The position numbers and the translations under genes are program-made. A DNA stretch of 64,000 nucleotides. Origin: Psammoneis japonica. Taxonomy: Eukaryota. The stretch covers positions 1 through 64,000 of the forward strand of contig QPGO01000027.1 of the NCBI GenBank assembly GCA_008632985.1, read 5' to 3'. The notes beneath the pieces were generated by a model. That model saw nothing but the letters and a program-made list of their open reading frames with translations. It did not search any database and was not told the origin of the DNA. Below are positions 10,148 to 52,159 of this stretch, piece by piece; the stretch's first letter is position 1; each line of letters opens with the position of its first letter.

Positions 10148-11070
10148 ATGAGACTGCCCAAAGAGGCCACAGAGTGCTTGGCACAGACGATCATTCAGAA
10201 GCCAAAAGGGTCACCTGCAGTGTGGAAACGTCGGCTTGCATCATGCTTCTGTACCCCAGAAGAAGTGGCATCTGAGTTGTGGGGGCTTCTCGTTGACGAC
10301 GGGAAAATGCCACGAGGTTTTTTGCCCATTCACCTGCTCCACACCCTTTGCTTTCTCAAATTGCACGAATCTGAGACAGTCGTTGCTGGCATCTGTAATG
10401 AAATCCATGAAGACACGCTGAGAAAATGGGTTTGGGTCAGAATTCAACTTGTTAGACAGTTAAATTTGGCACGTGCCATTCCAGATGTTGCTCATGTGTG
10501 TGAAACAAATGGGCTGACACCTTGTTCTTAGATTCGCTGGGAAGACCGCTTCACTGATGATGACGGCAGCAGATGTTTGGCGACACTCGACGGCACTGAT
10601 TTCAGAATCTACGAGCCATCACCATTTGATCCAATGTGGTTCTCCCACAAATTCCACGGTGCTGGGCTGCGGTGTGAAATTGGAGTGTGCATTCAGACAG
10701 GGTGGATTGTTTGGGTCAATGGGCCGCACCCAGCTGGGTTGCCGGATCTGAACATTGCTCGTGAATGGATCATTGAAGAGCTTGAAGATGGCGAGATGCA
10801 TCTGGCCAACGGTGGCTGCAGCGACGGGAGCCAGCACAGCTCGACTCCATCCGGCCCAAGAAATGCAGACGAGGCCATGAAAACAACAGCAAGGGCAAGG
10901 CATGAGGCTGTCAATGGATGGCTCAAGCGTTTGGAGTGCTCAACAAAAGACACCGCCACGCGAAGGAAACACATTGCCATGTGTTTCATGCCGTGGCCAA
11001 CATCACACAGTTGGCCCTCATGATGGGTTGCTCACCATTTGATGTGGATCATTTTGACAACCAAAATTAA
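10148..11070 (+). mobile_element. PIF/Harbinger (IS5/ISL2EU-like) DDE transposase, inactivated
   Basis: Motifs LDGTDFRI, FSHKFHGAGLR(C)EIGV, GP(H)PAG.PDL, (H)LA(N)GG(C) and RARHEAVN. Intron 10469-10531 has a mutated donor (gcacgt). A 1-nt frameshift near 10931 precedes FGVLNKR..HAVANITQL..taa. Confidence 0.85.
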
Positions 11071-11923
11071 CAGCAGAAAGCATGTTGTCGCCAAGATGAT
11101 GTTGCCGCGAACGTTCCTTAATCTCGCTGTCGATGCAACGCCTCGCGAGTCGATCGCGAGCAAAAGCGAACCCCTCCTCCCCACCTGCCACAGGTGGACC
11201 TGCAGCAGGGCCCTGCAGCACTGTCGCAGGGCCCACAGCATGCGCCGGACTGCATCTCCGTGACGCACGGGCGGGTGGCGGCAGCGTGCCCGGGGATGAA
11301 AATGCACCCACCGATGACGCAATTGTGACGTGTGCTTCCCGCACTTTTTTGTGGCCAGCCTTGCGGGGTGCAGACAGACACCGGCAGTGCCTCAGTGCGG
11401 CACGCGCATGCATTTTTTTCTGATGATTCCACGCGCAGATGATGGGGATGCGACAGAGATGCCGATGCCGAGCTTCAAAACCACACTCTTGTCTCACACC
11501 CGTTGAAGCTTGTGGTTGGTTGACTCCATTTCTCTTCAACCAAAAGCACTCACTTTTTCCTCTTGCATGGCAAATTTCAAGATTCTCAGCAACAAAAATC
11601 AAAAGCACAAAACAGCCCTCTGTTCGTTTCCACGACAGACACACCCAGCATGACAACTGGCAGACAAGATGATGATGTTGTTTGCGGGGCAATGCGGCAG
11701 ACAAACAATGCTACAAAAAAAGCTGCCGCGTGTCACATCATCCGTGCCATCAAGCAGCAGTGCAACAATTGTTTTTTCCTGCAACTCCCAGTATGTGGTG
11801 GTAATGTATGACATGGATATAAATATATTTTATGATACTTTTTGCGATTTGCAGAATCCAAAACTCACATCTGTGTTCTCCAAATCTCTGTACCCGTTGT
11901 GCCATCTCAGAGATCAGATAGCA

Positions 11924-12921
11924 ATGAGTAAGTATCTTATCTTTGGTGCCACAGGTCAGCAAGGTGGAGCGACCGTCAAAGCTCTGCTTTCCAAGGGCGT
12001 GAAGGGCGACGATATCTTTGGTGTCACTCGCAATCCCAACTCGAAAAAACTCGCTGATCTGGGAGTAAAGGCAGTCAAGGGTGATTTGACAAACCTTGAA
12101 AGCATCAAGGAAGCCATAACTGCGTCTCAGGCCGACACGGTGTGGTTTATTACCGATTTTGCCACGGCGGGATCCGCCAAGGTCGAAGTCGAACAGGGTA
12201 AAAACGTAATTGATGCCATCAAGCAGAGCGGAGATCAAGTCAAATACGCCGTGTTCAACTCGGTTTGCGACGCTGACAACTGCCCAAAGAGCATTGAACA
12301 TTTCTGGAGCAAGTCAGATGTCGAAAAGTACATGGCCAAAGAGTTTGAAGGCACGGGTAAGAAATGGGCAGTGCTCCGCCCAGTCGCATTTCTGGATAAT
12401 ATGGATAACGCCGCCATGCGTAACCCTCTTAAAAAGGGCCAAGTGTCCGCCTTGATGAAGGCCGAAACATCTCTCAAGCAGGTTGCTACCGTCGACATTG
12501 GAAAGGCGTCGGCGGTCATGCTGCAAGATCCTGATACATATTCTGGTAAAATCATCAACGCGGCCGGCTGTGAGCATACCGGTACAGAATTGGCTGAGAT
12601 TTTGACCAAGGTCTCGGGCACTCCATGCAAGTATAAAATGGTGCCTCGTTGGTTGCTCTGGCTCTTCATGAGGGACATGTACCACAGTAAGTTTTTTCTT
12701 CGCTTTCGCTGTTTACCCTGGAATCTTGCAGGTTGGCGTCACTGATATTCCATCTTGTTTCTCATTTTTAATGTTCAGTGGCCAAGTGGTTTGATGCGGA
12801 GGGATACTCTGCTGACGTTGCAGAATTCAAAAAGATTGTCCCTGATGCCATGGATGCGTCTGACTGGTTCAAGGCCAAGGGACAGTGGAGTGACGGAGAA
12901 AAGTTTGCGTCTTCGGAATAA
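11924..12921 (+). CDS. NmrA-like NAD(P)-binding Rossmann protein
   Basis: YLIFGATGQQGG, VTRNP, HFWSK and LRPVAFLDN. Intron 12687-12778. Stop taa at 12919-12921. Confidence 0.92.
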
Positions 12922-13545
12922 GGGTTGAAAATGTGAGAGTGTATCGTGTAGCATGTGTGTCTTTGTCGTTTCACATCTTTTATCTGGTACCAGCAGTTAC
13001 CGAGATAAAGTAGCCAATGTAAGATTACAACCAGACTTGTAAGCTTTCTTCCTTGTAATCAACTTTCTGTTCTTTCATAGTTACGAAAGCAGAAAACGCA
13101 GTGGAGGCCAATCATCGGTAGCGGCCAACTCAATGCCGTTTGCATGCACCTTCTAGCTTCTGCGCATCATTCTATTTTCTAAATTATGTGTTGCGACACT
13201 CTTACTAGCTCTACCTGGTGTTGTGACTATTTGGTCTAGGGTTACTGCTAAAAATTGAATTTTCGAGTTCTTGCCGAGTTGTCGAGAATAAAACGGTTGC
13301 TTGTATCTCGCAGATCTTTTTTGTTCGCCCGATTGGAATTCAGAATGGGCTTGATAACACGTTTGCAAAGTCGCATTAGCTTTTTCTTCGCACATTCTCG
13401 TGCAAGAACAGGACCCAAGCTATTTTTCTCTAACAAAAGAAAAGTGATTGATGCTATTTTGCTTTCCTCGCATTAGTGTTGTGGATAATTGAATTAGCGA
13501 CAAACAGACGAATGACGATGATTCCGTAGCCCACCCCTGTATCAT

Positions 13546-14604
13546 CTATCCATGGCTCAACCTAGCAGGCGCACGAGCTTCTTTCACTCTTCGTTCATAC
13601 TCATCGAGGTCGTCGTCTGTTGGAATTCGCAAGTCCGTGGCAGCAACCGTCTTTTTACAACGTGGATAACCCTTCCACACGACTTTCAACCGACCTCTCG
13701 GCGAGATCTTTCCCGTCTTAATTTGTACAATGTACGTGGTTCCCTTGTCATCAAACTTCCACAACGAGTTGCGCTCGAAAACTCCAGGCGTTGTTGCTCG
13801 ATGTTCTCGATGCAACAAACGGCGTTGCTGGGGGCGGCGTGCGCTTTGAAGGAGGACGTGCCGAATGACAGGTCGGCGGGACGCAGATGCTTCGCACCAC
13901 GCTCGACCGTGTGCCGATGGGTCGAAGCGAAATTTTGACTTGTGATTGCGAGTAGAGGCACGAGAGGCACGAGATCCTTTGGGATTAACCACTTGAGCGG
14001 TCAAAGCAGGAGGCGTGGGGCCCGACTCCATAATTGGTTGGTCATTCGACATTACTGTATTGTCGACATCTTCTTCGCTTTCGTTTGTGTGAACTTCTTT
14101 ATGTTCATCATCATCAGATTCTGAACGATGACTTTTAGCCGTGGAATGGTTGTCGGGCGAAAGGGGTACCAGCTGCTGGTCTTCAGCTTGCAACTTACTA
14201 CGTTTGGCTTCGTCTTCAGGTTGCACCTGAATACGGGACGTTTTCATACTCCTCCACAAATTCATAAACTTCACATGGTCGAGCAGTCCATTCAGTAAGC
14301 CTTTCAAAGACACGGTGCAGATTTGGTCATCCGTCATTACCTCTACAACCACAGCAGGTTCAACACCCCAGAAAACAAGGAACACGTCCGCCTCGTTCAA
14401 CTTGGGAAACGGTAACTCCTTGACTCGTGCGTACTCGCACCATCCCAAGAAATAGTCCATCCAAGACAATTCTCCTTTCTGAACACACTTGAGGAGAACA
14501 CGCTGAACGGTTGCAGCGGCTTTGTCGACCAATAGCCGTTCCTTGGGGAAATCAACGAAACAATCTCGAATGATACGATCGAGCAAAGAAAGCGACGTTG
14601 CCAT
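13546..14604 (-). CDS. Hypothetical protein, paralog of 4431-5633
   Basis: Same N-terminal block (LDRIIRDCF..WMDYFLGWCEYAR) and C-terminal block (RFDPS.HGRAW..VVWKGYPRC). Confidence 0.75.
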   Translation of the reverse strand: MATSLSLLDRIIRDCFVDFPKERLLVDKAAATVQRVLLKCVQKGELSWMDYFLGWCEYARVKELPFPKLNEADVFLVFWGVEPAVVVEVMTDDQICTVSLKGLLNGLLDHVKFMNLWRSMKTSRIQVQPEDEAKRSKLQAEDQQLVPLSPDNHSTAKSHRSESDDDEHKEVHTNESEEDVDNTVMSNDQPIMESGPTPPALTAQVVNPKGSRASRASTRNHKSKFRFDPSAHGRAWCEASASRRPVIRHVLLQSARRPQQRRLLHREHRATTPGVFERNSLWKFDDKGTTYIVQIKTGKISPRGRLKVVWKGYPRCKKTVAATDLRIPTDDDLDEYERRVKEARAPARLSHG

Positions 14605-15216
14605 CGTCTGACAAGGTATAGAGAGTATTCTCTTGCAAGGTTGTTGTTCTAAAGCTATGAAGGAAACACCGGGAAAATATTTGAGCATTATCATACAGAT
14701 TATGACAGATAGAAACAAAAGACTCTATGAAGGTCCGTTTGTGTTGTGTGTGAGTGCAATGTCGGCAGCACAGGTTTTGCGTTTGTTTGGTTCCACATGA
14801 TGTGAAAGAAAGACACAATAGAAACGTTCATGACCAAGTCGGAGAACTTTCCAACCATGTGCTCTCTAGAGAGCATAAAGTACTATTCGTATATGTTCTC
14901 AACACAATCAACGAGGAAAGGAGAAGAAGGAAGAGTTCCTGCCACAACCCAACAGCCGTTGCTGGTTGTGGCCTTTGAGTAGGTCGCGCTTTGTTGTGCG
15001 CATGCACGCGGTGCTGCGTTGTCGGTTTCAATCCTTCAATCCCGTTCACGATTGAACTCGAGAGACTGTGTGTGTGGCAGGCAGATAGCAGCATACTGTG
15101 AAAAATTCAGGCGACTGTGCTCTAAACTCTCTCTACCGACGTCGTACGTACGGTTCATTTATTCGACCGACCATGATAGCCGCCGCCGCTCCTGCCGTAA
15201 CCACAACAACCACATC

Positions 15217-16005
15217 ATGACGGAATGGCACCCCCTTCCTACTCCTAAGAAGCTACCAAAATGGCTTTCCAGCCTCAATGAAGAAGCGGAGAAAAGAGCT
15301 CGGGAGCTGGTGCCAGCTGCTCTGCCGTCTCTCGATCATTTAAACACGGACGATTACAACAATGTGTACGAACCGAGCGACGACACGTACTTGTTGGTGG
15401 ACGGTCTTTCTTATGAATTGCAATCGGGAGACTTGAAAGAATGTAGCATTGAATGTACATTAGAAATTGGCTGTGGAACCGGAGTTCCCACTATCTACTT
15501 GGCAAGCGAATTGAAAAAGAAACGATCGGGAAGTAGCACGACGCGACACTTTGTGACAGATATAAACCCAATTGCGTTGCAAGTTGCTCAACGAACGGCG
15601 GAAGCGAACGGCTGTGGGGATTCCTTAGAGGCCGTGCAATGCGATTTGGCGTCTGCGTTACTGCCGCGATTAGAGAATGCTGTGAATGTCTTGATTTTCA
15701 ATCCTCCTTACGTTCCGACACCCGACGAAGAGGTTGGTTCGAGCGGAATTGAAGCGAGCTGGGCGGGTGGCTTACACGGGAGGCGAGTCGTAGATCGTGC
15801 CCTTCCTCAGTTTGCGAAGTTACTAAGTCGTCGATTTGGTATTGGCTACCTCATTACGGTTGATGACAACTTACCAGAGGAGCTTCACAGCAACTTTGCA
15901 GAGCTTGGTCTTGATATGAAACCACTCGTGAGACGACGAGTTCGAAACGAGTATCTAACGGTTCAAAAGCTGACTTGGAAAGACAGACCAGCAGATACGA
16001 GTTGA
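15217..16005 (+). CDS. N6AMT1: HemK-family eRF1 glutamine methyltransferase (HEMK2/N6AMT1/Mtq2)
   Basis: VYEPSDDTYLL, LEIGCGTG, LIFNPPYVPT and SWAGGLHGR. Confidence 0.9.
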   Translation: MTEWHPLPTPKKLPKWLSSLNEEAEKRARELVPAALPSLDHLNTDDYNNVYEPSDDTYLLVDGLSYELQSGDLKECSIECTLEIGCGTGVPTIYLASELKKKRSGSSTTRHFVTDINPIALQVAQRTAEANGCGDSLEAVQCDLASALLPRLENAVNVLIFNPPYVPTPDEEVGSSGIEASWAGGLHGRRVVDRALPQFAKLLSRRFGIGYLITVDDNLPEELHSNFAELGLDMKPLVRRRVRNEYLTVQKLTWKDRPADTS

Positions 16006-18013: not shown

Positions 18014-19047
18014 CTATCGCTGCTGCTGTTGTTGTCTCTGTAGTCGCTCCTGCGCAAACTTTGATAGCTTCTTTATGGGAGGTGCGGTAGACTCTTGTGA
18101 TTGTATATTGTGTTGCACAGGGCGCTCCTTAACCACCCAGTAAAGACATCCCTATCTAGTTCTCGTCTTTCCCTGACTGGTGTTGCAGGCTTGAGCTCTG
18201 CCGCAGATCTTTGCCCTATACGGGGGATTTCTCGTACTTCGTTGGCAGTTTGAAACCCAACCTTCTTTTGCGAAACAGGTTTTGTTGTCGGGCGTACGGC
18301 ACCTTCTGTATCCTTCGGTTGTTGCGCAGTTCTTTTTTCGCGCTTTGTTTTGGGTTTCTTGTTGTTGCTGGAGAGAAAGCCTTTAGCCCACCCTTTACTC
18401 TGTAGTTTCTTAGCACTCTTCTTGTTAATTCGTTGGTTCTTCTCTGCCTCTTCTTCCAACAATGCTAATTCATCTAACCGAGCCGCCAAGGATCGGTATT
18501 CGTCGTCCGAAAGATTCCTTGCCGACTTTTCTGCTTCTTCCAAAACTGTCGGTGCGGTGGTGGACGTTATTGGCTTGGAGCTTGCAGTCCCTGCAGACGA
18601 TTCGGCGGCTTTCTTTTGTAAATACTCCAGTTCCTTTGCAACGTCTATGGCTTCTGCTCGAATTTCATTTCCCTGTTCATCGTATTCTTCTCGGATCTCA
18701 AAGTATGGCATGTGCTGTGATGCTTTCGGTTTGCCGTCGGGTCTATTATTAGGGATGGCCGTATCGGATGGCTGCTTTGGTTGTCGTTGTTGTTCTGGCT
18801 CCACAACTTTGGGCTCTTTGGACTTAATCAGCTTTTCAAAGTGATCTACAGCCTCCTCGCGAGTCATATCTACATAATAACCTTGCCCAAGGTTCACCAT
18901 GACTTGCTCACTCCTTTCGCTGTCAAGCTTGGGTTGCAGCGTCGCAGGGAAAAATGCCTGGGACGTCATGGGAACCATCACTTGTTGACCTATCAATGGC
19001 TTCTTCAAAATCTTCTGAACATCCTTACGCTGCTGCTTTTTCGACAT
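18014..19047 (-). CDS. URI1: URI1/Bud27-like unconventional prefoldin (one apparent 1-nt frameshift)
   Basis: Prefoldin-alpha segment VMVPMTSQAFFPA..VMVNLGQGYYVDMTREEA and EIREEYDEQG. The C terminus VVKER..KKLSKFAQER appears after adding one G near 18137. Confidence 0.75.
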
Positions 19048-21377
19048 GTTGCGAGAACCACCTACGATATGCACTGACTCACTCAATCCTCAAGTCTCAA
19101 ACGCCATTGTGACGTACTGCGATTTGCGTTGCGATGGATTGTACCGTAAGAATAAGTCGCAAGCCATCCGATTGGTCCGATGACCGATCCGTGCGTGCGC
19201 GTGCTGTTCAAACAGAGTTGACAGGTGGCAGGGTGGGTAGGTGGGTGCCTGTACGAGCTTAGCTCCGCTCCCGCATCTTCGTCATCGACTAAATCGGCTG
19301 GGGCGGGTGATGATGGGGCAAAAACTTCGAAGATGAAAGATGGATTAAAGATGACAGCACCGGCCCAATTGGTGACCTCAGAACATTGGGGCCACGAGCA
19401 AAGAGTGACTGCACCCTGCGTGCTGAAACAGATGAGAGGAGATTCAGACATGTGTTGAGAGTGTGGGTCTGGAGCAGCATCTGGGGCATGTCATGCTGCC
19501 ACAAAAGATGCCTTTTCAATGCACAAAGTGCCTTTTTGGTGTCTTTGGCACACCACACTGAGCCAGAAAAGGAGGGGGCGTGAGTGAGCATCCCTGTGCA
19601 AGAAGGCACCTCCACAAGAAAAGTTGAGCTCACGAGTGACAGCTTTCTGAGCAAAGCAAGACGTTGGAAATGATGTTTTTCCCAGTTTGTCACAGCTCTG
19701 ATGGAAACCTGGATGAAAGTGGAGACAAAGGGCCTCTCAACATGGGCTGCAGCTGCCCTGCATCCATGTCTGACACACCGGTGAAGACTGGGTGCATGAG
19801 AACCAAGACAAGTCAACAAGAAGGGCCTTGAGGAGAGACGACGGTCATTCCAACATGCAAGTGTGAGAGGGGTGGGTTGCCAGTGAGCACAGCTGAGGGA
19901 AAGATGGTCAGATCCCAAGCAACCTTGTGGCCAGCAGAGGTGACTCACCTGGCAAGTGTCCTGCACATGACATCTCTGGTGTGCTGTGCCAGAGGAGCTC
20001 ACTCAGTTGAATTGACAGAGGCTGCAATGCCAAACCACATTCTTCTCACAATGAGAGTGTCATCAGCTGCACCCAACACCTGGCACTTTGCCTCCATGCA
20101 GCCCTGCAAACCACAATGCCAGAAATGCTGGTCCCCCCAAAAGGCCAGATTTGCAAAGAAGAAAATTTGATGGAGGACCAAGTTGCTGCTTGCCAGCAGA
20201 ACATCTCTGACTGCTGAACTCTTCTGTCTGAGGTCGTGTTGTGATCTGCCACAGTGGACATCACAGGCTGGCATGCTGGAAAATGTGTGCACAAAGCTCT
20301 GTGCACACACGGGCTTCAACCGTGGCAAAACATCACTTTGAAACAGTCACTCAGACATGTGCATTTATCTGTGCTGTGCTCAAGTTGTTTCTCAAACAAG
20401 GCAGTCATGAGAGCAGTCACACTGCACAAGTTGTTGTTGCCCATTTGGCACAAAACTGTGCTTCACAAAAAGGGAAGAATGTTTGTGGGTGCTCATCATT
20501 TTTCCCAATGCAGCCCTTTGGTGTGTTGCAAAAATTGCATCTCTTTGCAGAAAGGTGCTTGTGTTGATCCCATGCACACACTCCACAAGGACATTTCACA
20601 CCATCTTCCAACACATTTGCTGCACATGATGATCCGAGACACCAGCACACACTGCTGCCTGTGCACTGCTGTCCTTCTCATGACCACAAATCTCATGACC
20701 ACAACCCCCACTTGTGTCTTTTTTCTGTGAGCAAGCATTGCAGCTCCCACACTTTCAACAATGCTGCATGGTGAAGGATCTGTTTGTTGGCATGACCACA
20801 TTCTGGACTTTTTTCACAGCCACAACAACAGGCCAAGCTTCTCAATGAGAGGAGCCTCCAGTGGACAGCCATGCTCTTGGAGAGAGTTGTTGTCACATGT
20901 GGCAGCAGCAGCACAGATGTGGAAGACAAGCAAACAGTGGATGATGAGACAAGGCCAACCCAAGCACATCCTTTGCTGTTCTTGGTGAGTGCCTGGTGAT
21001 GACATGGGAGCCAAGCAGCCATGACCAACCAGAAATGGCACCCCATGACAAAGAAAATCCTCCTGTGTCAGGCTTTGCCAGGCCAAGCAATCTTGTGGCT
21101 GACACATCACTGGCTTTCTTTTTCAGTGGGAGCTTTTGCCTGATCAACATGTGGGGTGGGATCTGGAGAGCCTCTGCACCCCCCCACCACCACCATTTCA
21201 GTGCTTTGGATCTTTTGTCCACTGCACACATTTTCACATGATGTGTGTTGCGTGCCCTGTTGTGAATTTTTTGGCAAGCATGGCACATCATGTTTGTCTG
21301 GTGCTTTCATCTCACAGCATCTTGGGACATTGTGGACAATTTGCTCACAATTTTGTGCTTCTTTTGGCCTCAATCCT

Positions 21378-21756
21378 TGCACTATGCTCGAAGAACGAGT
21401 GTAAACGAAAGTAGAACGAAGTTCAAAAAAGTGAAAATTGTGAGAATTGTTTCTGCGCAATCATTTTGGGTTTCTCCGAACGGGTTCTCAATAGCCTAAA
21501 CCTTTTGTACTGCTCCTACAGACAAAGGCCTTTCGGAGAATATGATCGTGACAACAGATTGTCCGGATACGATTGATATTGACACATAAGATGTCAACAT
21601 CATCGTACGATCGCATTTGCGATTCTCGACATCCGATCACTTCTGTGTGACTGATCTGTACTTCGTACGAACCCACGATTGACGTACGATTGAAATATAC
21701 TTTTATTTAATATATTCATATACATATATAATACGTACATAACAACGCATATTGCA
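21378..21756 (-). repeat. 3' LTR (largely unmutated)
   Basis: Colinear with 26175-26553; 30 TpA. Confidence 0.95.
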
Positions 21757-21782
21757 TTCGCCTCCCTAATTGCACATTAGAG

Positions 21783-24700
21783 TCAGTCGTTAAACGGCAT
21801 TATCCGACGAATATTGACAGTGTCAATAACGTCACCGCGTTTGATCTGTACTGTGCCATTAGCATGTACCGTTGTTATTACGTACGGTCCAACATAGGGC
21901 TGTTCTAATTTTTGCGAGTCTTTCTCGAGTAGTATCTTTTCTCCTACTCTGTACGTGTAAGGAGTACGTCGAGCATTCTCTCGAGCGTTATTTTTATTTA
22001 TGATTTCTTGTTTTCGCTGCTGGATTAATTTCCAGTCTGCGACATGTTGGACGTTAAATATCATGTCTCTATTGAAGACTAGTTGTCCTGGTGTAGCTTG
22101 CGTAGTGGTATGATACGTAGAACGTACCGCAAATGCTACCGCTGATAGCATTCCAGCGAAAGGATCCTCAGCATCTAGAGGTGCATGTTGCAAATCAAAT
22201 GTACGGAGCATGTTCCCCAGCACTTGATGTACGCGTTCAATAATTGCGTTTGCTTGTGGATTTCGTGTAGTTATAGGCTTGACTTTAATGCCACAATCAT
22301 CTTGCACCATTTCTCTAAATTGGTGTCCGATGAACTCACTTCCACGGTCACATGTGGTTGACGATGGCCAAGGACATCTGCTTGACCATGTTCGTTCTAG
22401 CAGTCCAGCTGCAGTTGTGGGCTCCTCATTTGGGATTTCCACAACTTCAAACCATCCGGTTGCTGGATCGATCATTGTCAAACATTTCAGGACTGGGGGT
22501 TCTTTCTTTCCCTTGCGACGCATTTTGCATGGCCCAATGAGGTCCACACACAGTCGTTCCCATGGTGCGGATTCTGCGCACTTGGGAGGTAAATGTCCAC
22601 ATTTCTTGTGTTTCTTTTTGAATTTTTGGCACGTCTCACATCTCGACACGTATTTTCGTATGTCTTCACGCAAGGTGGACCACCACAGGTGTTGTGAGAT
22701 TGTTTCTTCTGTTCGATTTGTGCCAGGGTGAAGAAGGTGCGCATGGCACCAATCCATCACTGCCTTTTGCAACGTCCTCGGGACGACAATTTTGTCCTTG
22801 TGACATGTGAGCAACCGGTCTCGCTCGCCTCCATGAAAAGTCTTCGCACGAAACGTCTCATTTGACAATTGGGAGAGAATGTCTTTGTCCCGTTTTTGTT
22901 CACAATCAAGAACTTTGCAATTTAACGGAAAGACATTGTCGCAGGATTTTGGTGGGACCTTTTCAGCCAGCTCTTCTGTGCTGAGGGTTTCCACAGGTTC
23001 CATTTTCTTCACAACAAGTCGGCCAATCGCATCTGCGACAATGTTTGCCTTGCCCTCAAGGCATGTCATTTTGGGACTGCACTCTTCTGTTGTTAGATGC
23101 CAACGCATGACTCTGTCCGTTGTGAAATTTTTGTGTGTGAGATTTTTGTGATCCGTGTGTGTGTTTGTCTGTTGGCCAAACAGCACATTGCGGAACTCTT
23201 TTGACGTCTCCACCATGGACAACAGCTCTTTTTCCGTTGCAGTGTGACGCGTCTGCGCTCCATTCAGCTTGCGGCTGTAGAAGGCAATTGGTCGGTTTTT
23301 CTGAGTGACAACCGCCCCCAATTGAGAATCACTGGCATCGGCACATGTCTCAAAGGGTGCATTTGAAATTCGGGTGTGACAATGGCACATCTTTGGAGAT
23401 GATGCGCTTCACATTTTCGAAGGCTTTTTGTTCTGTTTCGGTCCATTGCCACTTCACTTGGGTAGAAGTGAGTTTGGCCAAAGGAGCTAAAACATGAGAT
23501 CGTCGAGGCCACATGTCTCGACAGCAGTTGATCACACCGATGAAGCGCCGCAATTCCTTGCGAGTTTTAGGAGTTGCGATCGCATGAATCGCTTCCACTT
23601 TTTTTGGAATCAGGCTGATGCCCTTGCGGGTGACATGAAAGCCCAGGTGGTCTGCTTCAGGTTTAGCGAAAAAGGACTTCTCGGCGTTGACCTTCAATCC
23701 GGCTTGTTCTAGGCGCAAGAACACCATTTCAAGCTTCTTGAGGTGGTCTTGAAAATCACCTGTTGCAAGACACAATGTGTCGTCAACATGAGTTCTGACG
23801 AACTCCAGACCTGCCATGAGCTCACTCATGTGCTCTTGGAAAACATCTGGAGCTCCACAGATTCCCATCGGGAGTCTACAGCACTCACATTTGCCGTGAG
23901 GCATGACGATCGTGCACAAGCAACGTGCGTGCAGCGTCAATTCGATGTGACAGTGTCCCATGTTTAAATCTGGGGACGTTGCATGCATGAAGCCTTCGAG
24001 CTTCTGTGGCATGTCCTGAACATTGGGCAGAGGAAACGGAGCATGAATTGGCCTCTCATTTGGCTCACGAAAGTCGGATGAGAACCGAACTCTGCCATTT
24101 TTCTTGGGTTGAACAAAGGTTGGAGCCGCCCATTCAGAACAGTTTGTTTTTCTAAGACTTTCAACTTGCACAGTCTTTCAACCTCCTTGCGAGCAGTCGC
24201 CTCCAAGGCTTGTGGTGCGGGAAATGGTTTGGCATGATGCGGACTCACGCCCGATTTCAACTTCAAATCCACCGGTTTCCCGGTCCATTTGCCTGGAGAA
24301 CCATCGAAAAGGTTTTCAAATCTTTTTAAGAGGAAGTTCAGCTGCTTCTGCTCTTCAGGAGTTAGATGAGCAGCTGCTGCAGTCACATCATTGAGGTTTG
24401 CAGCGTGACAGTCTGAGTCAAGGATCCGATTGACCCTGTCATTGAGACCAATCACTGCGTGAGATTCCTCAATGTGATCGGCAATCAACTTAAAAACATC
24501 GGCATCGAAGAGTGTGTCAACATTCTTCACAGGAGCAGCTGCGTCTTCCCATTTAATCTCTTCATTCGAGAAGTCCAATGTCATCCCAAGACTTGACATT
24601 AAGTCGCGTCCCATGATCACATCATGACGACTCGAAGAAGAAGGGGAGTCATCAACACACGCTGTTGTTTTGATCATCTCATGTTTGTCAAATTCGGGCA

Positions 24701-24887
24701 AGGAGAATTGGATCTTACATCGACCATCAGTCGTAAAGAGCCCTCCTTTGGTTTCCCAGAGTTTGGTGGCGGGTGCTTTGGTTCTGAGTTTCTGCGTGAA
24801 TTTGCGCAAAATTGTGGCTGACGATGTTCCGCCATCGAGGAGAACGCGCAGAGGCTTGTTTTTTGCTTTGCCCAATGAAGTGTTCAT
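21783..24887 (-). pseudogene. pol: Gypsy pol (protease, RT, RNase H, integrase) with two 1-nt frameshifts and many Tyr->Cys/His changes
   Basis: LLDGG (protease), SEWAAP, RLPMG, HVDD, DASD, FYSRKL, HPG..CETCQ, VDLIGP, DRGSEF, PQANAIIERVH and GPY. Frameshifts near 24153 and 23367. Confidence 0.93.
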
Positions 24888-24983
24888 GTGGGCGACAACT
24901 GCTGGACTGGTGTGAATTACTTTGGCCCTTTTTCTGGGCTTCCTGATGTCCAGCAGAGCGCAAGACTCCTCTTGCGGTGCAAG

Positions 24984-26138
24984 TCATTCCTCAGAATCAC
25001 TGCTCGTCATTTTTTCAAACTGACAATTCTCCTCGTCAAGGGCATCAGAATCACAATCTTTGCTCTTGTGCTTTTCATCATTGTTCGAGGAACTCGCTTT
25101 GAGCATTTTTTGAACTGCTTGGATCGCCGTGGCATTCAACTCTTCTTTGCGAGCGGCGTTGTCGTTATCGCGACGAGACCATGTGCGATTGCCATTTGAA
25201 CGGTGCCGTTTCGGGTCGGGTTCATGGTTCCCACGGCGTTCTTTCGCAAGTCTTTTGATCGACCAGCACTTGTCCATGTTGTGAGTGGATTTCTCGCATG
25301 AAATGCACCACTTCTCGGACTGAGATTTTTCGGCACCATGTTGGTGACCATTTTTGGAACCACGTTGGGAACCACTCTTGGCTTTTGATGCAGCACCGCC
25401 ACTGCCATCAGCCTTGGCATGAATGCCATCGAACATGTCTTCTGCGACCTCCAGGCGCTCCAAGAACTCAACCAACTCGTCACAGGTGTGTCTCAAAATT
25501 TCGAAACCCTGGACGGTCGACTGACGCTGCCACTTTCGAGGTGCAAGATTGAAGAGGATGTCCTTGAGCTCGTCATCCTCGATCTTCTGTTCCTTCCCAA
25601 AGGGAGGATAGAACTTGAGGTCTTCGTTGACTTCCTGGACCCAAGCAGCAATTTCGCGCACTTTCATGGACTCCGGCTTCTTGAGATCACGACGCAAATA
25701 ACGTTTCTGCACCGAAAGTGCGTTCTTGGGAAACACATGCCTCGTGAGATGTTGCAGGCATTTCTCGAAGCTTCCTTCCGCAGATTCGTCTTCAAGGTTC
25801 GCTGCCGCATTCTCGAAAGCACGTAGAGCGTCTCCTTGGAGCAACATGCGCATGAGACGAAACTTGTCAGATTGCTTCCTGACATTCTGGCCCACTGGAA
25901 GTTGATCGTAGCTCTTGAGAAATTCGATGAACTTGGGGACACCTTGTTTCTTGTGGCACTCGACATTGATGGTGTGGGTGCGGCTGTCCTTCTTCTCGGG
26001 ATGAAAACGTTGCTCCATCTTGAGGTGCTGGCTCGGTTTGAGGCTCTTTGGCTCGGAGTTCGATTCCAGCGGTTGAGGAACGATTTTCTCCTGCCTTGAC
26101 GAAGTTTTGGCATTGGTTGCATGAGGTGAAAGCTTCAT
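24984..26138 (-). CDS. gag: Gypsy gag with a CCHC zinc knuckle
   Basis: ORF upstream of pol containing C-x2-C-x4-H-x4-C (CISCEKSTHNMDKC). Confidence 0.85.
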   Translation of the reverse strand: MKLSPHATNAKTSSRQEKIVPQPLESNSEPKSLKPSQHLKMEQRFHPEKKDSRTHTINVECHKKQGVPKFIEFLKSYDQLPVGQNVRKQSDKFRLMRMLLQGDALRAFENAAANLEDESAEGSFEKCLQHLTRHVFPKNALSVQKRYLRRDLKKPESMKVREIAAWVQEVNEDLKFYPPFGKEQKIEDDELKDILFNLAPRKWQRQSTVQGFEILRHTCDELVEFLERLEVAEDMFDGIHAKADGSGGAASKAKSGSQRGSKNGHQHGAEKSQSEKWCISCEKSTHNMDKCWSIKRLAKERRGNHEPDPKRHRSNGNRTWSRRDNDNAARKEELNATAIQAVQKMLKASSSNNDEKHKSKDCDSDALDEENCQFEKMTSSDSEE

Positions 26139-26174
26139 CTTGAACTTGTTGCCTTCTGTGGTGTGTGTGCACAA

Positions 26175-26553
26175 TGCACCATGCTCGAAGAACGAGTGCA
26201 AACGAAAGTGGAGCGAAGTTCAAAAAAGTGAAAATTGTGAGAATCATTTCTGCGCAATCATTTTGGGTTTCTCCGAACGGGTTCTCAACAGCCTAAACCT
26301 TTTGTGCTGCTCCTACAGACAAAGGCCTTTCGGAGAACATGATCGTGACAACAGATTGTCCGGATGTGATTGACATTGACACATGAGATGTCAACATCAT
26401 CGTACGATCGCATTTGCGATTCTCGACATCCGATCACTTCTGTGTGACTGATCTGCACTTCGTACGAACCCACGATTGACGTGCGATTGAAATGTGCTTT
26501 TATTTGACACATGGACATGCACACACAATGCGCACATGACAACGCACATTGCA
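26175..26553 (-). repeat. 5' LTR (TpA-hypermutated)
   Basis: Colinear with 21378-21756; only 5 TpA remain. Confidence 0.95.
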
Positions 26554-28955
26554 TCCTTGATGTTGATTTTATTTTCATGAGCACAAACAATCCTTCCATC
26601 TCAACAACTCTGCCATGCACAAACATGATGCACCCTCCGTCATGATTGCACAGCCACTTCTAAAAAATGTGACCTCCTTGCAACCAACCAACCAGATTTT
26701 TTAACCACAACTTTGTCTCAAATCACTCAGCAATCACCGTTGCTTTTTCCTCCATTTTTGCATTCTGTTGGAGAATTTTTGCTCCTGCTCCAACCACTGA
26801 GAGAAGTCTTGCAAACACTCTTTTGTCAGAGTGATGTTTGTGTGTGACCAAGTCTTGTGCACAAAACCTGCAAAGTTGAGCTTTGTGCTCCACTTTGCTG
26901 TTTTGCATGTTGGCCAGACTTTCTGCCATCCTCTGTGGCCACCAATGGGATGAGGGGAGCTCGCAGATGGCATTGTTGTCATTGTTGCAGAGAAGATCAT
27001 CTTGAGATGTTCTTGACTGGAACGAGTCATGTGGTTGCCAGGGCTGGCCGCTGAAGGCACAAACACCTGCATGTGTGTGTTTGGGGGGGGGGGGGGGGTT
27101 GTTGCCGGTGGCATCAACTGGCTGGGCTTCAGCTGCAGACAAGCAGATGAAAGCTGCAAAATGACAAGGCTCTTGGTTGACTTTTTCAGACATCAGAGGC
27201 TGGTTGCACCTCTGGCTTTGGCGCACATCGTGCCATGATCTGGGTCGCAGTGGCTGGTCCTTGGGCCATCTTGGGCTGGGCTTGATGATGCTGGCTCTGG
27301 TGTTGAGGCACTTTTGGATGAAACTGCAGACTGCATTGTGTGGCATGGAAATTGCCAGCACTTGAAGGTTGCTGGGCTGCTGGAGGGAGTTCTTGCCAGC
27401 AGCAGCTTTGCATTTGGTTGACTCTCTGACAGAAGCAATGGGTGGGTTTGCCGCAACAAAAGTGATGCAGCCACGAGTGCACAAAATGTGCTCCTTTTGG
27501 GATGAAAGTTTTTGACAGGGAATCCGCAAGAGACACCACTTGTCTACAAACAAAGAGGTCTTGGTTGGCAGAGGGTGGGTGGCAGCAGCAGTTGACAGCC
27601 AAACTCAGACAATGAGCCCAAGCATGTCACTCGAAAAGCAGAGCAGCACAAAAAGGAAGTGATCACCCAGGTTGTGAGAGCTGATCTCCTGTGCTGCTGA
27701 AGGTTTTGAGAGCTGATCTCCTGTGCTGCTCAAGTGAAAAAGTGGCGAGGAAAGAGAAGAGGCCCTGGTGGCTGGAGATCAGAGTGCCAGCAGCTGACGG
27801 TTTTCTGAGGCTGACCATTGCTGACATCAGCTTGGACGAGCTCTGCCTGTGCAGTGAGTTTCTCCTTGCAGAACGTCCAAGAAATTCCCAAACAGCATGT
27901 TCACACTCAACTCCTCAACCCTCATCCATGCAGTCTTTTTCACACTCAACTCCTCATCCCTCATCCATGCAGTCTTTGTGTCGTCAAATCATGTCTTCGT
28001 TGAAATGCACTTATTTGAACGAGAAGTGTGCATGTTCTGCAGTCACAAAGACATCCAACACCCTGATTCAACATTTGACACGCGTGTTGCGCGGGACGCT
28101 GCGCTCTGTCGCACGTGCTGCTGCCCTTCTCAGGACCACAAAAATCGTCTTCGTCGTCATCGTCGTCATCAACATCGTCCCTTTCATCATTGGAAGCTGC
28201 TGAAACCACATTACAAACAACTGTCCTTGATCGGTGCGATCTGCAAGCTGCAGCATCTCCACAGGAAACTGTGGAAAATCCAGCAGAGGACGTGACAACC
28301 AACAAAACACAGAGGAGTCGTAACCCACGACACTTTCTTGGAGTGAATCGCCCATTCCACCTGTGCTCTTTGTGCATGTTTCGTCTGTGTTTGTTGCATA
28401 AAAACCGCAGCATCCGACGCATGCGCCATTGTCAAACCGTCGGCCATCGGGCCATCGGCCAGCAGCAATCTTGCCTGACGACGTGCGCACGGCACGTTGC
28501 TGATTTACCACAGTGTCGCACAGCCAGCATCACAAGCACACACACAGCGAAAGCCCTCTGCCAATTGGCAGAACGCCTCGTATGTAGAAAATGTGCTGAC
28601 ACCTGCACGATCGCTTTTTTTTCTGTCGCTTTGCTTGTGCACACGAAATCTCAACAAACATTTGCAATTCTGACAAGATTCAAGGTGAAAATCGATGCTT
28701 CTTTGCATTTTCCAAGGAGCCATCATCTCACTTTTTCGAGTTTTCGGTTCAAACAAAACGCAAAACGTTCACAAAGAAGCAACAAAAAAGCAACAATTTG
28801 CTTGACGATTTGGGGTGTTCGCACCCCAAGCAAAACAACATTTTCCTTGAGTGTCACCAAAAAATTCCTCTGACGAGTCTCTTCCTTGTGCACACGATTT
28901 CACAATGGGAACACGTCGGATGAATGCGCACAGATACGATGTGGAGAGCTGAACG

Positions 28956-30048
28956 GGGCGATCCAGGAAACTTCGAAGACTTCGAAAGATTCCATGTTCC
29001 ATGACATTTCTGCAAATCATTCTACGTGCAGAGCTCGCAGGTTGTTGGCACTTTATAAACAAGGGGCAACAGATAAAAGTTCGAACAAACATGTTGTGTG
29101 TTCGAAGCTTTCGAACATTGTTCGAAGTGTTCGAAGTTTTGTCGCAAACACATTGCCCTCCAAAGATTTTGATTTGAGTCACTTGTTCTTCGAACTTTTC
29201 ATGTTGCCCTTTTGGTCACTTCAAACTTGTTCGAACAAAGTTCGAACTTGTTCGAACAAGTTGAATTTTAATTGTTTGTCCAGTCATTCATGTGTCATTA
29301 CGAATTGACAACCACCGATTTTTGGCACGTGACACCACCATGATGACACGTTCCGTCGAACGAGTTCAGGCCCACCCGGAACAGTCACCAAGCCATTTGG
29401 GTACAGCCATGTCAATGAGGCACTTGCGGATCATGCATGTCTCATTGGATTGGCAATTCTTCGTGGTTGACAAATGAACGACGGCAAAGGATTCACGTGT
29501 TGTTTTGTCGTGCTTTGGCGTAGAAAACCTGCGCAGGCCTGCTCTGAGCCACAAGCGCGCGCAATGAGCTTGCAGTGCATCATCTCGTAGCTGCCTGCAC
29601 TTGTCGCTTCAATTGTGCGTACTGTGTCTCATCATCTCATTGACACCAGTAGATGCTCGAGACTCGAGTGGAAGAGAGCACAAAACAACAACGTGAGATG
29701 TCACACCGGTGCCGCATCGCGCGTGTTGTGCTGCCAGCAGCACGTACATCATTCGGCTGCGGATGTCATCGTGACATCATCATTCGTCTCCCTGCCTTAC
29801 TTTTATTTATGAATTATAAACTTCGAAAGTGTTCGAAGTGCTTCGAAGTGTTCGAAGTGTTCGAACACTTCAAACAACTTCGAACACTTCGAACTTTCTT
29901 TGGGGCAGCATAAAGGGCAACAGAGAAAGAAATTTCACAATGTTCGAAGCTTTTGTCCATCCTGCACGAGGTCCACGTAGAGATGTGTTGACAGGAATTA
30001 GGAATCTCTTGAACATTTTTCGAAACTTCGAAGTTTCCTGGATCGCCC
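28956..30048. mobile_element. Non-autonomous TIR element with subterminal TTCGAA arrays
   Basis: Perfect 23-bp inverted repeat gggcgatccaggaaacttcgaag (28956-28978 and 30026-30048). Dense ttcgaa clusters at 29080-29260 and 29820-29950. Confidence 0.8.
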
Positions 30049-31725
30049 GGAAGCGCCAAGGAGCCATCATGGCAAAATGCCGATTTTCCCTGAGTGTTTG
30101 CATCGAATCCATGGCAGAGTGCAGGGTTCGTGTGGTGCGTTTTACTGTCGAGAAAAGAGCACATGGTGAAAATTGTTTTTAGTGTGCGTGTGGCATGTGC
30201 TGGAGTGGGAATTGAGCAAAGTGCAGTGTGTGGCCATGGCGGCTTTCCGAATCGACACCGCATCCCTCCCATTGATCCCGAGGAACATTTGCGTTCACAC
30301 ATTGCCATAGATCATAAACATCATAAAGCTGTGCATGCCGAAAACCATCCCTTAGACCATTTTTCGGCTCTCATTTGCCACATTTTGCAGTCGTTCAGGT
30401 GCCATCAAAGTTTGTTGCGTTTGCAAGGAGAAGATTGGCGAGAACGGAAAAAATGCATTGTTGTCACGCCATGATGTCACACAGGCAAGATTCCCACACA
30501 CAAATGATGCAGCAGCATCCTGCTGCGTGTCTTTTCCGGTGCCTCGGCGCCATTGCCTCTCTCGTGTTGTTTCGTGTTGCTCTGCATGAACATGCATGCT
30601 CATCCTCATACGTCATGCAACGTCACAGACTGAAATAAAGTATGGCTAAATTTTTAAAGTACTGAGTCTACCTATGGTCAAGGTTTTCTACGCGCGTTTC
30701 GCTATGTGACAGTAGCATCTTTCCTTCCGACGAACGTAATTTCAGAAATCGTGGGGCCTACGTACACCCTGGTACATAATGTTACTCATTCCTTATCCAT
30801 GCAGTCATTTATGTCTATGCAGTCTTTACGCTGTGGAAAGGGATGTCTTGGTAGAAATGTACTGATGTGACTTGAAGTACGTATTCTACGAAGACATTTC
30901 ACAAATTGTTTCAACATTTATTGTCATGCCCCGAGACATTACACACTCTCGCAAGCGGTACTGCCCTTCTCATGACCACAAATCCTGCAGCTTTTTTGGC
31001 TCTCTCCTCGCCACATAACAGATAATATCTATTCCCGAGTGAGCATCAGAATGCCTGCATAGAGACCCTTTTCCTTTTTTAAAATACTAGTATATTGCAC
31101 AGCGAGGGACCCATTTATCGACGTGACATCATTCTAGACTTTTTTGCAGCATGAGCGTGACATCAGACCCTTTTTCCATTCCACAACACTGCTTGGGCAG
31201 GATTCGTGGCTGACACCGAGACATTGTATCTTGGGCGGGACACTCAATCAACTGCGTCACCAGCGATCCCAACTTGCTATATTTAATGAGACGGTCATGA
31301 TTATGCCACGTATACTGACTCTCGTCGCTTCTTTTTGCATCGCAAATCCTGCTTGCAGCTTTGGGCTGGTCCTACTCTGTCCTCGCCACTGGTCTTTTCC
31401 GTGAACGTCCCAGTACGTAGGCGCTTTTTTCTTAACAAACGCTGCACGGAGAGGGATTCATTTAACGACATTGCTGCTTACAGGATTCTTAATATAACTG
31501 CGATGGTCGCTTGGGTTTCTCAATCGCGTGCGTCAGAAGCAAACACCCGTTTGCCATTGGACGAGACGGTCATTATTACGTCAGGGTGGCCAAAATCCGA
31601 ACCTTGAAAATTCCGGTGGCCAAGTTCTGAGTGAAGGTCCTCCCGCCCTCTTGGTTTTGGCACATAAATCCAGATTTTGCCTTTCTGAAAAGCTCTCTCC
31701 TCTATCTGCCGTACATTACGCAACC

Positions 31726-36896: not shown

Positions 36897-37365
36897 CTTT
36901 ATAGCTTTTTGTGACAAATCGAAAGATATTGGTGAACCCGACAGAATATGTGATTCGCAGCGGTCGTTGCATGCAGGTGTTGCTCCCGAAAATGTGAGGC
37001 ACGTCGCCAATCAATCGGTGGTTCTTGACCATCGCGCGAAGATACGCACTTCAAACTGCTGGTGCGCGACGTAACGTGGGCAAGTCTCATGCAATTGGCA
37101 ATATAAGTTGCTACAGTATTGAAGAGTTTAGATTTACTATCTTCGTCATGATGACGTGCGAAGATTTAACGTCGGCAAGGAGAAAGCGATGACAGAAAGC
37201 ATGACGTGGGTCAACGTCAAACATTGATGCTGGTTAGTTCCATGTACTTTCATTAGAGTCGTTCAGTCCGGTCCGTCCGTCGCTCACTCGAACTCTCATC
37301 GAGTTTTCGATTTCCACGTAGATTTTTGAAAACGAAGAGAATGGCCACAGCAGGCTCTCTCTCTT

Positions 37366-37370
<5 letters not shown>

Positions 37371-37401
<31 letters not shown>
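37371..37401. repeat. (GA)n microsatellite
   Basis: About 15 GA units. Confidence 0.9.
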
Positions 37402-37403
<2 letters not shown>

Positions 37404-37599
37404 GCCACTGCCCACAGTTTACAGTCTTCTAAACAACCAGTTTGCCCTGCAAATGACACACAATCTGAGCATCCTTGTGGCAGTCTTCAGTTGGCTGAGA
37501 GACTCTGTTCCAGCTTGCCAGGCTCAAAACTGCTTGGCTGCAACTGCATTCTCAGCCTCGCAATTTTTCAACATTTCTGCTCTCGCTGCTCATTTTCTA

Positions 37600-38120
37600 T
37601 TTTTACCACTTCTGATCCTGGGAAGGTCTCTTCCAGGATTTCTTTGAATGCCGGCATGTCCTCTGAACCAACTTTGGGATGACAGCATTGTTGTTGCAAG
37701 CCCCAACAACAAGAGCACTCTTCTCTGCTTCAGCAAGCTCATTGCCTCTGAGAGCACCTTTAACTTCAAGTGCACTGCTGCTCCTGCAGTTGCCAACAGT
37801 GTTTTCAGGGCACGGAGGCCGAAGCAACAGCGAAGCTGGTCCCACATTTTGGCGCTGCACTTCAAGAAAAAAGGTCCACAACACTGCCCGTGAGCCCCTC
37901 AGCTGTTGCAACACCTTGACTGCAGCATTGCCTGGGAAATGAGCTTCCCATGTGGGATGACCATTGCAAACAACCAGAAAAGAATCTTCAACTCATCAGG
38001 AAAATTGCTTCGCCCCTCACATCCAGGGTTCATGGCAACGAAGATGCCAACATTTTCATGAAGTTTGATCGATCTGTCAAGAAGTTCAACCTCTTCTTTT
38101 TGTTCAACCAGGCAATGCTG
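37600..38120 (-). pseudogene. Dynein heavy chain AAA1-AAA2 fragment, hypermutated and frameshifted
   Basis: VGIFVAMNPG(C)EGRSNFPDELKILF..AMVIP..LISQAML, (CC)FGLRALKTLL..AG and VIPKLV..DMPAFKEILEETFP match the dynein consensus [21 protein letters not shown] / HYDFGLRALKSVL / VPKLVAED..DVFPG. Confidence 0.85.
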
Positions 38121-42549: not shown

Positions 42550-42810
42550 AACCAAGAGAGCAGCAAAAAATGGATGGAGAGAGAAACACTTTAAAGTGAA
42601 ATGGCGCCGCTGCAAACACAGTTTGTGGTCTTCAAACCTGAAAATGCAACACTTGCATTGCATGCCTGCTGTGACCTGCCACACCCCTGGCACAAACTTG
42701 CAAGGTGTCTTTCTGACATGGGCTCTGCACTTGCCCCCACACTTTGTCTTCATGTGAGCCTCCAATTCTGGAGTTGGATCCAAGACAAGAAGCCTCCATG
42801 TGACACGCTA
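42550..42810 (-). pseudogene. Hypermutated 3' fragment of the DUF1295-like gene (copy A)
   Basis: Colinear with 49828-50055; reads PELEAHMKTKCGGKCRAHVRKTPCKFVPGVW. Confidence 0.9.
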
Positions 42811-52033: not shown

Positions 52034-52068
<35 letters not shown>

Positions 52069-52159
52069 AGGTGCCACTGCCACTGCAAATGAAGTCTGCA
52101 GTTTTCAAAACCAGCTTGCCCTGCAAACCAACACAATGCGTGCGATGCGTGCCCAACCC

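Follow-up and report, generated by a model that had tools for sequence, protein, structure and literature searches.

Probable TpA-directed hypermutation of silent DNA blocks in a nuclear region of a diatom

In a 64-kb stretch of the diatom Psammoneis japonica (contig QPGO01000027.1, positions 1–64,000; hereafter the window, i.e., the whole stretch analysed), a Ty3/Gypsy-type retrotransposon at 21378–26553 carries two sister long terminal repeats (LTRs) that differ almost exclusively at TpA dinucleotides. We consider it highly probable that these differences record a DNA-level A:T→G:C conversion at TpA that is confined to silent, non-genic domains of this nuclear region. The LTR pair is only one sign of a mosaic that spans the whole window, in which blocks nearly devoid of TpA alternate with gene-bearing blocks that keep it.

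TpA loss between the sister LTRs and its direction

The element lies on the minus strand and is 5.2 kb long (its end falls at 26554 in the LTR alignment). Pfam matches along this strand come in the order RVT_1, RT_RNaseH, Integrase_H2C2 and rve, the reverse transcriptase–RNase H–integrase arrangement of Ty3/Gypsy elements, and further hallmarks of the group are present: 379-bp LTRs with TG..CA ends, a TCCT/TCCT target-site duplication and the polypurine tract AGGGAGGCGAA. The target-site duplication and the polypurine tract tie the two LTRs to one insertion. Besides these two LTRs, no further copy of the element was found within the window.

The ungapped LTR alignment comprises 380 columns with 31 differences (91.8% identity). 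The left LTR contains 30 TpA, which in the right LTR have become CpA at 14 sites and TpG at 11 and are kept at five; the right LTR has no TpA elsewhere. Differing bases thus make up 25 of the 60 inside TpA vs 6 of the 320 outside (Fisher p = 2e-17). The latter six consist of one AA→AG change, one TG/CA swap (two bases), one CpG→TpG change and two adjacent transversions, which are the only transversions among the 31. CpG is identical at the other 23 of 24 sites, so that TpA loss (25/30) exceeds CpG loss (1/24) about 40-fold on a log scale. Among 35 AA steps there is a single independent AA→AG change. The CA and TG outcomes are interspersed along the LTR (17 runs vs 13.3 expected, z = 1.5), and GC content rises from 0.38 on the left to 0.45 on the right. 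An earlier sequence-only reading of the window had given the same LTR counts (30 TpA, 11 TpG, 14 CpA, 1 of 24 CpG and the minor differences), which our alignment reproduces exactly. Its view of a TpA-specific, strand-symmetric A:T→G:C change that acted in place after insertion is borne out, with the target-site duplication tying both LTRs to one insertion, and so is its claim that this change is much faster than 5-methylcytosine decay.

The direction of change was read from protein alignments of the RNase H–integrase frame with 16 homologues, all near 50–57% identical, and of the reverse transcriptase frame with 26 homologues. In the TA-poor part of the element, 21 columns hold Tyr in most homologues; here the element encodes His (CAY) in seven, Cys (TGY) in 11, Phe in two and Tyr in one. 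The reverse transcriptase accounts for 11 of these columns (5 His, 5 Cys, 1 Phe and no Tyr), and in the RNase H–integrase frame at or above position 22400, His or Cys stands at 8 of 10 conserved Tyr positions. Even the tyrosine of the catalytic YxDD motif, present in 26/26 homologues, is His in the element (CAT at 23788). Eight conserved-Tyr columns lie below 22400; the pair closest to the edge reads Cys, and Tyr is kept in three that lie deeper inside. Because a working element could not have had His or Cys at these residues, TA is ancestral and CA/TG derived.

A second, independent pair is provided by a DUF1295 gene and its dead copy. The 34 aligned TpA of the gene correspond to 19 CA, 12 TG and 3 GA in the dead copy, with none kept; its 46 CpG correspond to 20 CA and 20 TG, with 2 kept. 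The CA and TG steps of the gene remain unchanged in 80% and 77% of cases, respectively. In these sequence comparisons, the TA→CA/TG direction is confirmed both by the conserved Tyr columns and by the DUF1295 pair. The sequence-only reading had named a derived TA-rich LTR as an outcome that would overturn it, and the same two lines of evidence contradict that outcome. Repeat-induced point mutation (RIP) of fungi changes C to T at CpA, yielding TpA, stop codons and lower GC; it is homology-dependent and hits both copies. The earlier statement that the present change runs opposite to RIP holds, given the Tyr→His/Cys replacements, the gene/dead-copy pair and the rise in GC. The converted frames of the element stay long and open, as the TpA change creates no stops and removes TAA and TAG.

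Relatives of the element elsewhere have normal TpA. No copy of the same family turned up in the protein collection, the best match being 57% identical, and the 120 homologues listed all have a normal Tyr content (2.4–5.1%), none being a hypermutated copy. Related elements were also found in metagenomic loci, 78 of which were kept out of 403 confirmed. In 77 of the 78, the observed/expected ratio (o/e) of TpA is 0.56–1.17, and it falls below 0.2 in 6 of 1,659 segments of 400 bp. Judged from these sequences, TpA loss is not a trait of the transposon family. One locus alone is strongly depleted (L033, positions 1–1518; TpA o/e 0.19, CpG 0.04). It spans 13 conserved-Tyr columns and reads His or Cys in 5 of them, which hints at the same process in another organism.

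A mosaic of TpA-poor and gene-bearing blocks

Over the 64-kb window, the o/e is 0.32 for TpA, 1.46 for CpA, 1.44 for TpG and 0.67 for CpG. When the window is divided into 160 segments of 400 bp, TpA o/e is below 0.2 in 81 of them, and 34 contain no TpA at all. The longest TA-free run measures 2,865 bp (44909–47774); with TA and CG set aside, the corresponding maxima of the remaining 14 dinucleotides are 95–259 bp. The TA-poor blocks (approximately 8001–11600, 19201–21377, 22321–30400, 37200–47600, 51200–57600 and 59201–64000) make up 55% of the window and alternate with TA-normal blocks, in which TpA o/e is mostly 0.4–0.8 and CpG is near 1. Block edges are sharp: TpA occurs about every 10 bp until 7998, and the next one is at 8275. 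TpA was lost with CpG kept in the element body, in 28001–30400 and in 56001–57600, and others lost both; the TpA-poor blocks differ in age.

Host genes recognised by Pfam were found in 8 of the 16 long open reading frames (ORFs) tested in TA-normal blocks vs 0 of 8 in TA-poor blocks. The former encode an ABC1 kinase, DnaJ, an NmrA-like protein, a methyltransferase, prefoldin, GNAT, a weak thioredoxin match and DUF1295. The named relatives of the ABC1 kinase are all from diatoms (Skeletonema, Cyclotella cryptica, Conticribra, Attheya, Fistulifera and Seminavis; 49–61% identity). Gene blocks keep TpA in intron and upstream DNA as well, and a 92-nt intron, confirmed by a spliced contig, retains four TpA. 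The TA-poor blocks contain 101 ORFs of at least 110 aa, among which only four family matches were obtained, all of them fragments (DDE_Tnp_4, dynein AAA_6, DUF1295 and O-methyltransferase); a fifth, to DUF2955, is marginal (E = 0.004) and below the cutoff. The dynein fragment matches the relative P0241 at 41% identity over 237 aa (tblastn), and two Tyr of P0241 align to Cys. The rest of the 10-kb TpA- and CpG-free block around this fragment gave no Pfam family match.

Read support came from a public run (X1) whose library type is unrecorded; its word depth and the length of its contigs lead us to infer accurate short reads. X1 was the only run listed with this stretch, next to two runs of the same sample, and no RNA run containing it was listed. 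On single-copy parts, X1 contigs have a word depth of ~56 and reproduce 18177–21405 and 26524–28343. A 3,228-nt contig covering 18177–21405 has five listed differences from the window, all below 18700, so that the TA- and CpG-free flank is exact, and it runs on from this flank into the left LTR for 28 nt, both TpA of that segment included. At the other end, a 584-nt contig (26524–27098) shows no differences; it carries the right flank together with the terminal 30 nt of the right LTR, in which six sites are converted. As for the check in reads that the sequence-only reading had proposed, the TA-free flanks and both LTR–flank junctions were reproduced within a run of unrecorded library type. 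In a TA-poor, single-copy X1 record (27083–28343), all four differences fall at TpA or CpG, two of them being TA/TG polymorphisms. Differences in the gene blocks are scattered and mixed and include transversions. The element interior has a depth of 6,000–15,000 in X1, i.e., ~100–270 times the single-copy depth, which puts the family at roughly 100–270 copies. Where X1 contigs differ from this element copy, the change is a transition in 416 of 479 places. A reading of X1 depth by which most family copies are TA-type (~5,000–10,000 L-type vs ~760–960 R-type LTR places) was rejected: copies that mutated independently also lie a little nearer to the unmutated LTR.

The sequence-only reading had called the process repeat-targeted, a claim that is not supported. 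The sister LTRs are equally repeated and only one was hit; likewise, only one of the two DUF1295 copies is mutated, and an edge of the converted region lies inside the integrase gene near 22320. The homology dependence typical of RIP is therefore not seen. In addition to the Gypsy element and a DDE_Tnp_4 relic, the converted DNA of the window includes dead copies or fragments of host genes (DUF1295, dynein and O-methyltransferase). Since equally repeated sister LTRs fared differently, we infer that position decides and that the target is chromosomal position (silent chromatin or a mutation tract) rather than repeat homology. The converted part of the element and the block at 28001–30400 are parted only by the older flank, and the two fit a single tract of ~22320 to ~30400 whose edges ignore the element borders. 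Regional confinement is also apparent in the sharp-edged mosaic and in the X1 comparison, with 4/4 differences at TpA or CpG in the TA-poor record and mixed differences in gene blocks.

Several further observations concern individual parts of the window (Table 1). Part of the spared island (21601–22000) has an unusually high CpG o/e of 1.98, with recurring CGTACG motifs. The old TA-free right flank contains short tandem duplications at 27669–27732 and 27900–27977 (32-nt and 39-nt units, two copies each). The mid-copy repeat at 28001–30400 has no Pfam match and is partly covered by a second, RNA-like run (X2, labelled 'DNA?'). An X2 contig skips 92 nt (GT..AG, 12686–12779) inside the NmrA-like gene ORF at 11654–12745. 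X2 cover tracks gene blocks and parts of 27775–29727; it is absent over 19312–27774, a gap from which nothing is concluded. In one gene block, an ORF (14983–16005, plus strand) matches the methyltransferase small domain (MTS); nothing ties it to the TpA process. A tRNA scan of the window found none.

Table 1 Features of the element and of the surrounding mosaic, in window coordinates
Feature	Position	Strand	Remarks
Target-site duplication TCCT, left copy	21374–21377		Matches 26554–26557
3' LTR (left on the plus strand)	21378–21756	-	379 bp; 30 TpA; GC 0.38
Polypurine tract	21757–21767	-	AGGGAGGCGAA in minus-strand letters; adjoins 3' LTR; direct sequence reading
TA-kept island: 3' LTR and integrase C-terminus	21378–22320		79.5 TpA per kb; conserved Tyr kept at 22113, 21951 and 21894
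RNase H–integrase frame	21783–23408	-	541 aa stop to stop; Pfam RT_RNaseH, Integrase_H2C2, rve; homologues at most 57% identical
TA-depleted four fifths of element	22321–26553		7.8 TpA per kb (over 22321–26554); CpG o/e 0.6–1.0
Reverse transcriptase frame	23350–24177	-	Pfam RVT_1; YxDD motif reads HVDD (CAT at 23788)
Upstream frames in gag/protease place	23964–26219	-	411 aa and 339 aa; no Pfam match
5' LTR (right on the plus strand)	26175–26553	-	25/30 TpA converted; GC 0.45
Target-site duplication TCCT, right copy	26554–26557		Matches 21374–21377
Older left flank, insertion target of element	19201–21377		Almost no TpA; CpG o/e 0–0.2 over most
Older right flank	26558–28000		TpA o/e 0–0.05, CpG o/e 0.16–0.28 from 26801 on
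Repeat block, same state as element body	28001–30400		TpA o/e 0.11–0.37; CpG near 1; X1 word depth up to ~1800
TA-poor block with DDE_Tnp_4 (Harbinger-type) transposase remnant	8001–11600		Remnant at 10532–11020 (+); sharp left edge 7998/8275
Largest block poor in TpA and CpG	37200–47600		Contains TA-free run 44909–47774
Decayed dynein heavy-chain fragment	37443–38123	-	In-frame stops; Pfam AAA_6, E = 7e-15
DUF1295 gene copy, TA-normal block	49980–50751	-	Pfam DUF1295, E = 3e-13; reference of pair
TA-poor block with dead DUF1295 copy	51200–57600		From dinucleotide o/e
Degenerate DUF1295 copy, TA-free block	52211–52956	-	73% identical to gene copy
TA-poor block with O-methyltransferase fragment	59201–64000		Fragment at 59184–59585 (-); sharp edge after 59212

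Alternatives and the proposed process

An artefact of sequencing is an unlikely source of the TA-free state, and we regard as very unlikely the specific version in which silent chromatin carries a modified base at TpA that the base caller or consensus gets wrong, the DNA being really TA. Such an error could mimic the pattern: TpA is palindromic, and if a modified T or A in it were miscalled on one strand, the result would likewise be CA or TG and never CG. X1, with its library type unrecorded, is possibly the assembly's own sample. However, the TA-free flanks and both LTR junctions recur in X1 k-mer contigs (depth ~56; 3.2 kb and 1.3 kb) with 0–5 other letters, and noisy long reads would hardly yield contigs of this kind. 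X1 also differs from the window at scattered gene-block sites and is thus not merely the same consensus, CpG loss joins TpA loss in only some blocks, and the same signature is real in Illumina-sequenced lines of Bigelowiella natans, according to a recent preprint (10.64898/2026.01.13.699255). Extremely improbable is the reverse process, a RIP-like CpA/TpG→TpA change that hit the left 0.95 kb and made the TA-rich LTR the derived one. The left end has a lower GC content (0.38 vs 0.45), and in one 500-bp window its indices fall within the RIP range (TpA/ApT 0.91; (CpA+TpG)/(ApC+GpT) 0.82), but His or Cys (CAY/TGY) occupies 18 of the 21 Tyr columns of the TA-poor part, catalytic YxDD included, and the TA-rich part retains Tyr and an open frame without RIP-type stop codons. 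Moreover, the TA-bearing DUF1295 partner is the copy with the Pfam match, and related elements elsewhere have normal TpA.

Editing before integration, by ADAR-like A-to-I hyperediting of RNA or by error-prone reverse transcription, with the changes fixed on integration, is likewise highly improbable. The preference of ADAR for a 5' U, mentioned in the discussion of that preprint (10.64898/2026.01.13.699255), suits the TpA context, and the Gypsy family is abundant in X1. Yet sister LTRs share one template and nonetheless differ at 25 TpA, both strands are hit, and DNA unrelated to retroelements (the dead gene copy, the dynein fragment and the DNA-transposon relic) was converted too; the near-complete sparing of AA, with its single change among 35 steps, points the same way. 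An unlikely possibility, though one to be taken seriously, is that the two parts of the element have different histories, 21378–22320 stemming from gene conversion by an unmutated copy or from an assembly chimera; the LTRs would then no longer serve as a clean clock, whereas the TpA hypermutation itself would stand. TpA density indeed shifts abruptly, within ~100 bp near 22320, and an island that is TA-poor on both sides is odd for a domain-based process. Against this explanation, the TCCT/TCCT duplication and the flank-anchored X1 contigs place the TA-type end and the converted end at one insertion site, and 28001–30400 shares the state of the element body, fitting one tract of ~22320 to ~30400 that ignores the element borders.

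Some observations weigh against a domain-confined conversion at TpA or are left unexplained by it. Why 0.95 kb next to an old TA-free flank were spared is unaccounted for, and a family present at ~100–270 times single-copy depth invites both gene conversion and mis-assembly. X1, possibly the assembled sample itself, is the sole read set with the region, and the letter-level reading concerns one copy of the Gypsy family. Ongoing activity is suggested, on the strength of only two TA/TG polymorphisms. At the palindromic ATAT, nine CA vs one TG outcomes were counted on the plus strand, which is unexpected for strict strand symmetry; TATATA runs or a local strand bias may underlie this skew. Finally, the natural target of TadA is UACG, and two of the five TpA that survive in the right LTR sit in CGTACG, the nearest context to it; these TACG survivors lend no support to a simple TadA-like preference.

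Taken with these reservations, conversion at TpA in silent domains remains our preferred reading, and the sequence shows its course. The 5.2-kb Ty3/Gypsy copy, duplicating TCCT, entered a block from which TpA and CpG had already gone. Approximately 83–90% of the TpA in its 5' four fifths were then converted, with the 3' 0.95 kb spared and CpG left near normal. The same conversion is complete in ~55% of the window, comprising transposon relics and dead gene copies, where CpG has also decayed to TpG/CpA. The chemistry is probably enzymatic, and the strand hit would decide whether TpG or CpA results. The predicted outcome is an irreversible inactivation of mobile DNA without stop codons, in which every Tyr would become His or Cys and TAA and TAG stops would be removed.

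The most likely candidate for the mechanism, although we put its chances at somewhat less than even, is an ADAT2/TadA-like enzyme that deaminates the adenine of T-A (A→I, which is read as G). ADAT2/ADAT3 and TadA act on an A preceded by T/U, so that deamination would turn TpA into TpG or, if it struck the other strand, into CpA. TadA-derived base editors deaminate A in DNA; we know of no regional targeting by ADAT2/ADAT3 or TadA. DNA activity has been reported for the amphioxus adenosine deaminase BjADAT2 (PMC10354150).

The main alternative to the adenine deaminase is thymine modification followed by mispairing. A minor but real chance attaches to this other chemistry, in which a modified T at TpA (e.g., 5-hydroxymethyluracil made by a TET/JBP-type enzyme) mispairs with G, or repair by an error-prone polymerase introduces WA→WG changes; the phenomenon would be the same. 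A T→C change on one strand equals A→G on the other, and the two are inseparable from sequence alone. Furthermore, the sequence context of surviving TpA, of which there are 160 in 35.4 kb of TA-poor blocks vs 1,121 in 27.6 kb of TA-normal blocks, is two-sided. TTAA is over-represented 6-fold and CTAA/TTAG 3.5-fold, ATAT is absent, and ATAG (0.16) and ATAC (0.25) are rare, so flanks matter, and TAA/TTA contexts resist conversion. The shape of the DNA, and not a deaminase pocket, could lie behind this flank effect. The polymerase version, which the sequence-only reading had listed as a Pol eta-like candidate, is a poor fit, since AA is spared (one independent AA→AG among 35 AA vs 25 of 30 TA). 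To our knowledge, no modified thymine of this kind has been described in diatoms, and the literature on N6-methyladenine in diatoms yielded nothing relevant to TpA. Flanks also bear on the outcome: among the 62 polarised sites of the LTR and DUF1295 pairs, TTA became TTG in 8 cases vs 2, and ATA became ACA in 17 vs 8. An additive neighbour model for strand choice was dropped, as 62 sites are too few and ATAA misfits.

Related systems and significance

The pattern is reminiscent of a system recently described in the chlorarachniophyte B. natans (Mettrop et al., 10.64898/2026.01.13.699255). In its mutation-accumulation lines, 231 of 302 new single-nucleotide mutations fell in integrated giant-virus and virophage regions; all but one of these were A→G or T→C, all at TpA, at a rate of ~6e-7 per site per generation. 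De novo mutation at about 1000 times background, in some lines only, is characteristic of this system. TpA-depleted clusters enriched in CpA and TpG are also enriched for reverse-transcriptase and DDE domains, and its authors suggest that the process guards against invading DNA and name an ADAT2-like deaminase (Bn78255) as a candidate (10.64898/2026.01.13.699255). Diatoms or stramenopiles are not mentioned in the preprint (10.64898/2026.01.13.699255). It was the one report of this signature that full-text literature searches turned up, and they yielded none of TpA hypermutation in diatoms. The statement of the sequence-only reading that no eukaryotic system with this signature had been described is outdated by the preprint.

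The two cases share a nearly exclusive A→G/T→C change at TpA that gives TpG or CpA within bounded regions, the remaining genome being ordinary. However, B. natans is a rhizarian, whereas the host here is a diatom and hence a stramenopile, and our evidence is historical rather than from mutation accumulation. In the nucleocytoplasmic large DNA virus (NCLDV) region of B. natans, Rho(TpA) is 0.45, while TA-free runs here reach 2.9 kb and 81 of 160 segments have an o/e below 0.2. The targets differ as well, being an LTR retrotransposon, transposon relics and dead host-gene copies in our window, with CpG decay superimposed. Like RIP of ascomycetes, the process consists of dense, regionally bounded transitions, which inactivate mobile DNA where it lies and are recognisable by their dinucleotide signature; unlike RIP, it turns TpA into CpA/TpG, introduces no new stops, raises GC from 0.38 to 0.45 and hits one of two copies. 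It ends in TpG/CpA as 5-methylcytosine deamination does, and CpG decay is present in the older TA-free blocks (40 of 46 sites in the dead DUF1295 copy), but CpG decay leaves TpA untouched and is ~40-fold slower here.

If real, which the evidence favours, this would be a second, phylogenetically distant and far more extreme case of TpA hypermutation, pointing to a general eukaryotic genome defence. A bolder proposal is that diatoms, or at minimum this lineage, run a domain-targeted DNA editor that erases TpA from all silent DNA, thoroughly enough to leave more than half of this region TpA-free, and that it is the same system as in B. natans, ancient and widespread in the stramenopile–alveolate–rhizarian (SAR) group; we hold this to be possible but doubtful. 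The differing sister LTRs, the sharp edges and the blocks of different age offer a natural experiment in which target definition can be mapped and events ordered. For genome analysis there are practical consequences: hypermutated copies still resemble open genes and are a trap for annotation and protein databases, and the erasure of TpA and CpG biases composition-based binning and analyses of diatom genomes. For base editing, an enzyme from nature that edits A at T-A steps of double-stranded chromosomal DNA would be of interest. Were a shared SAR system true, it would shape the genome composition of major ocean phytoplankton and represent a natural adenine editor of double-stranded DNA with chromatin targeting.

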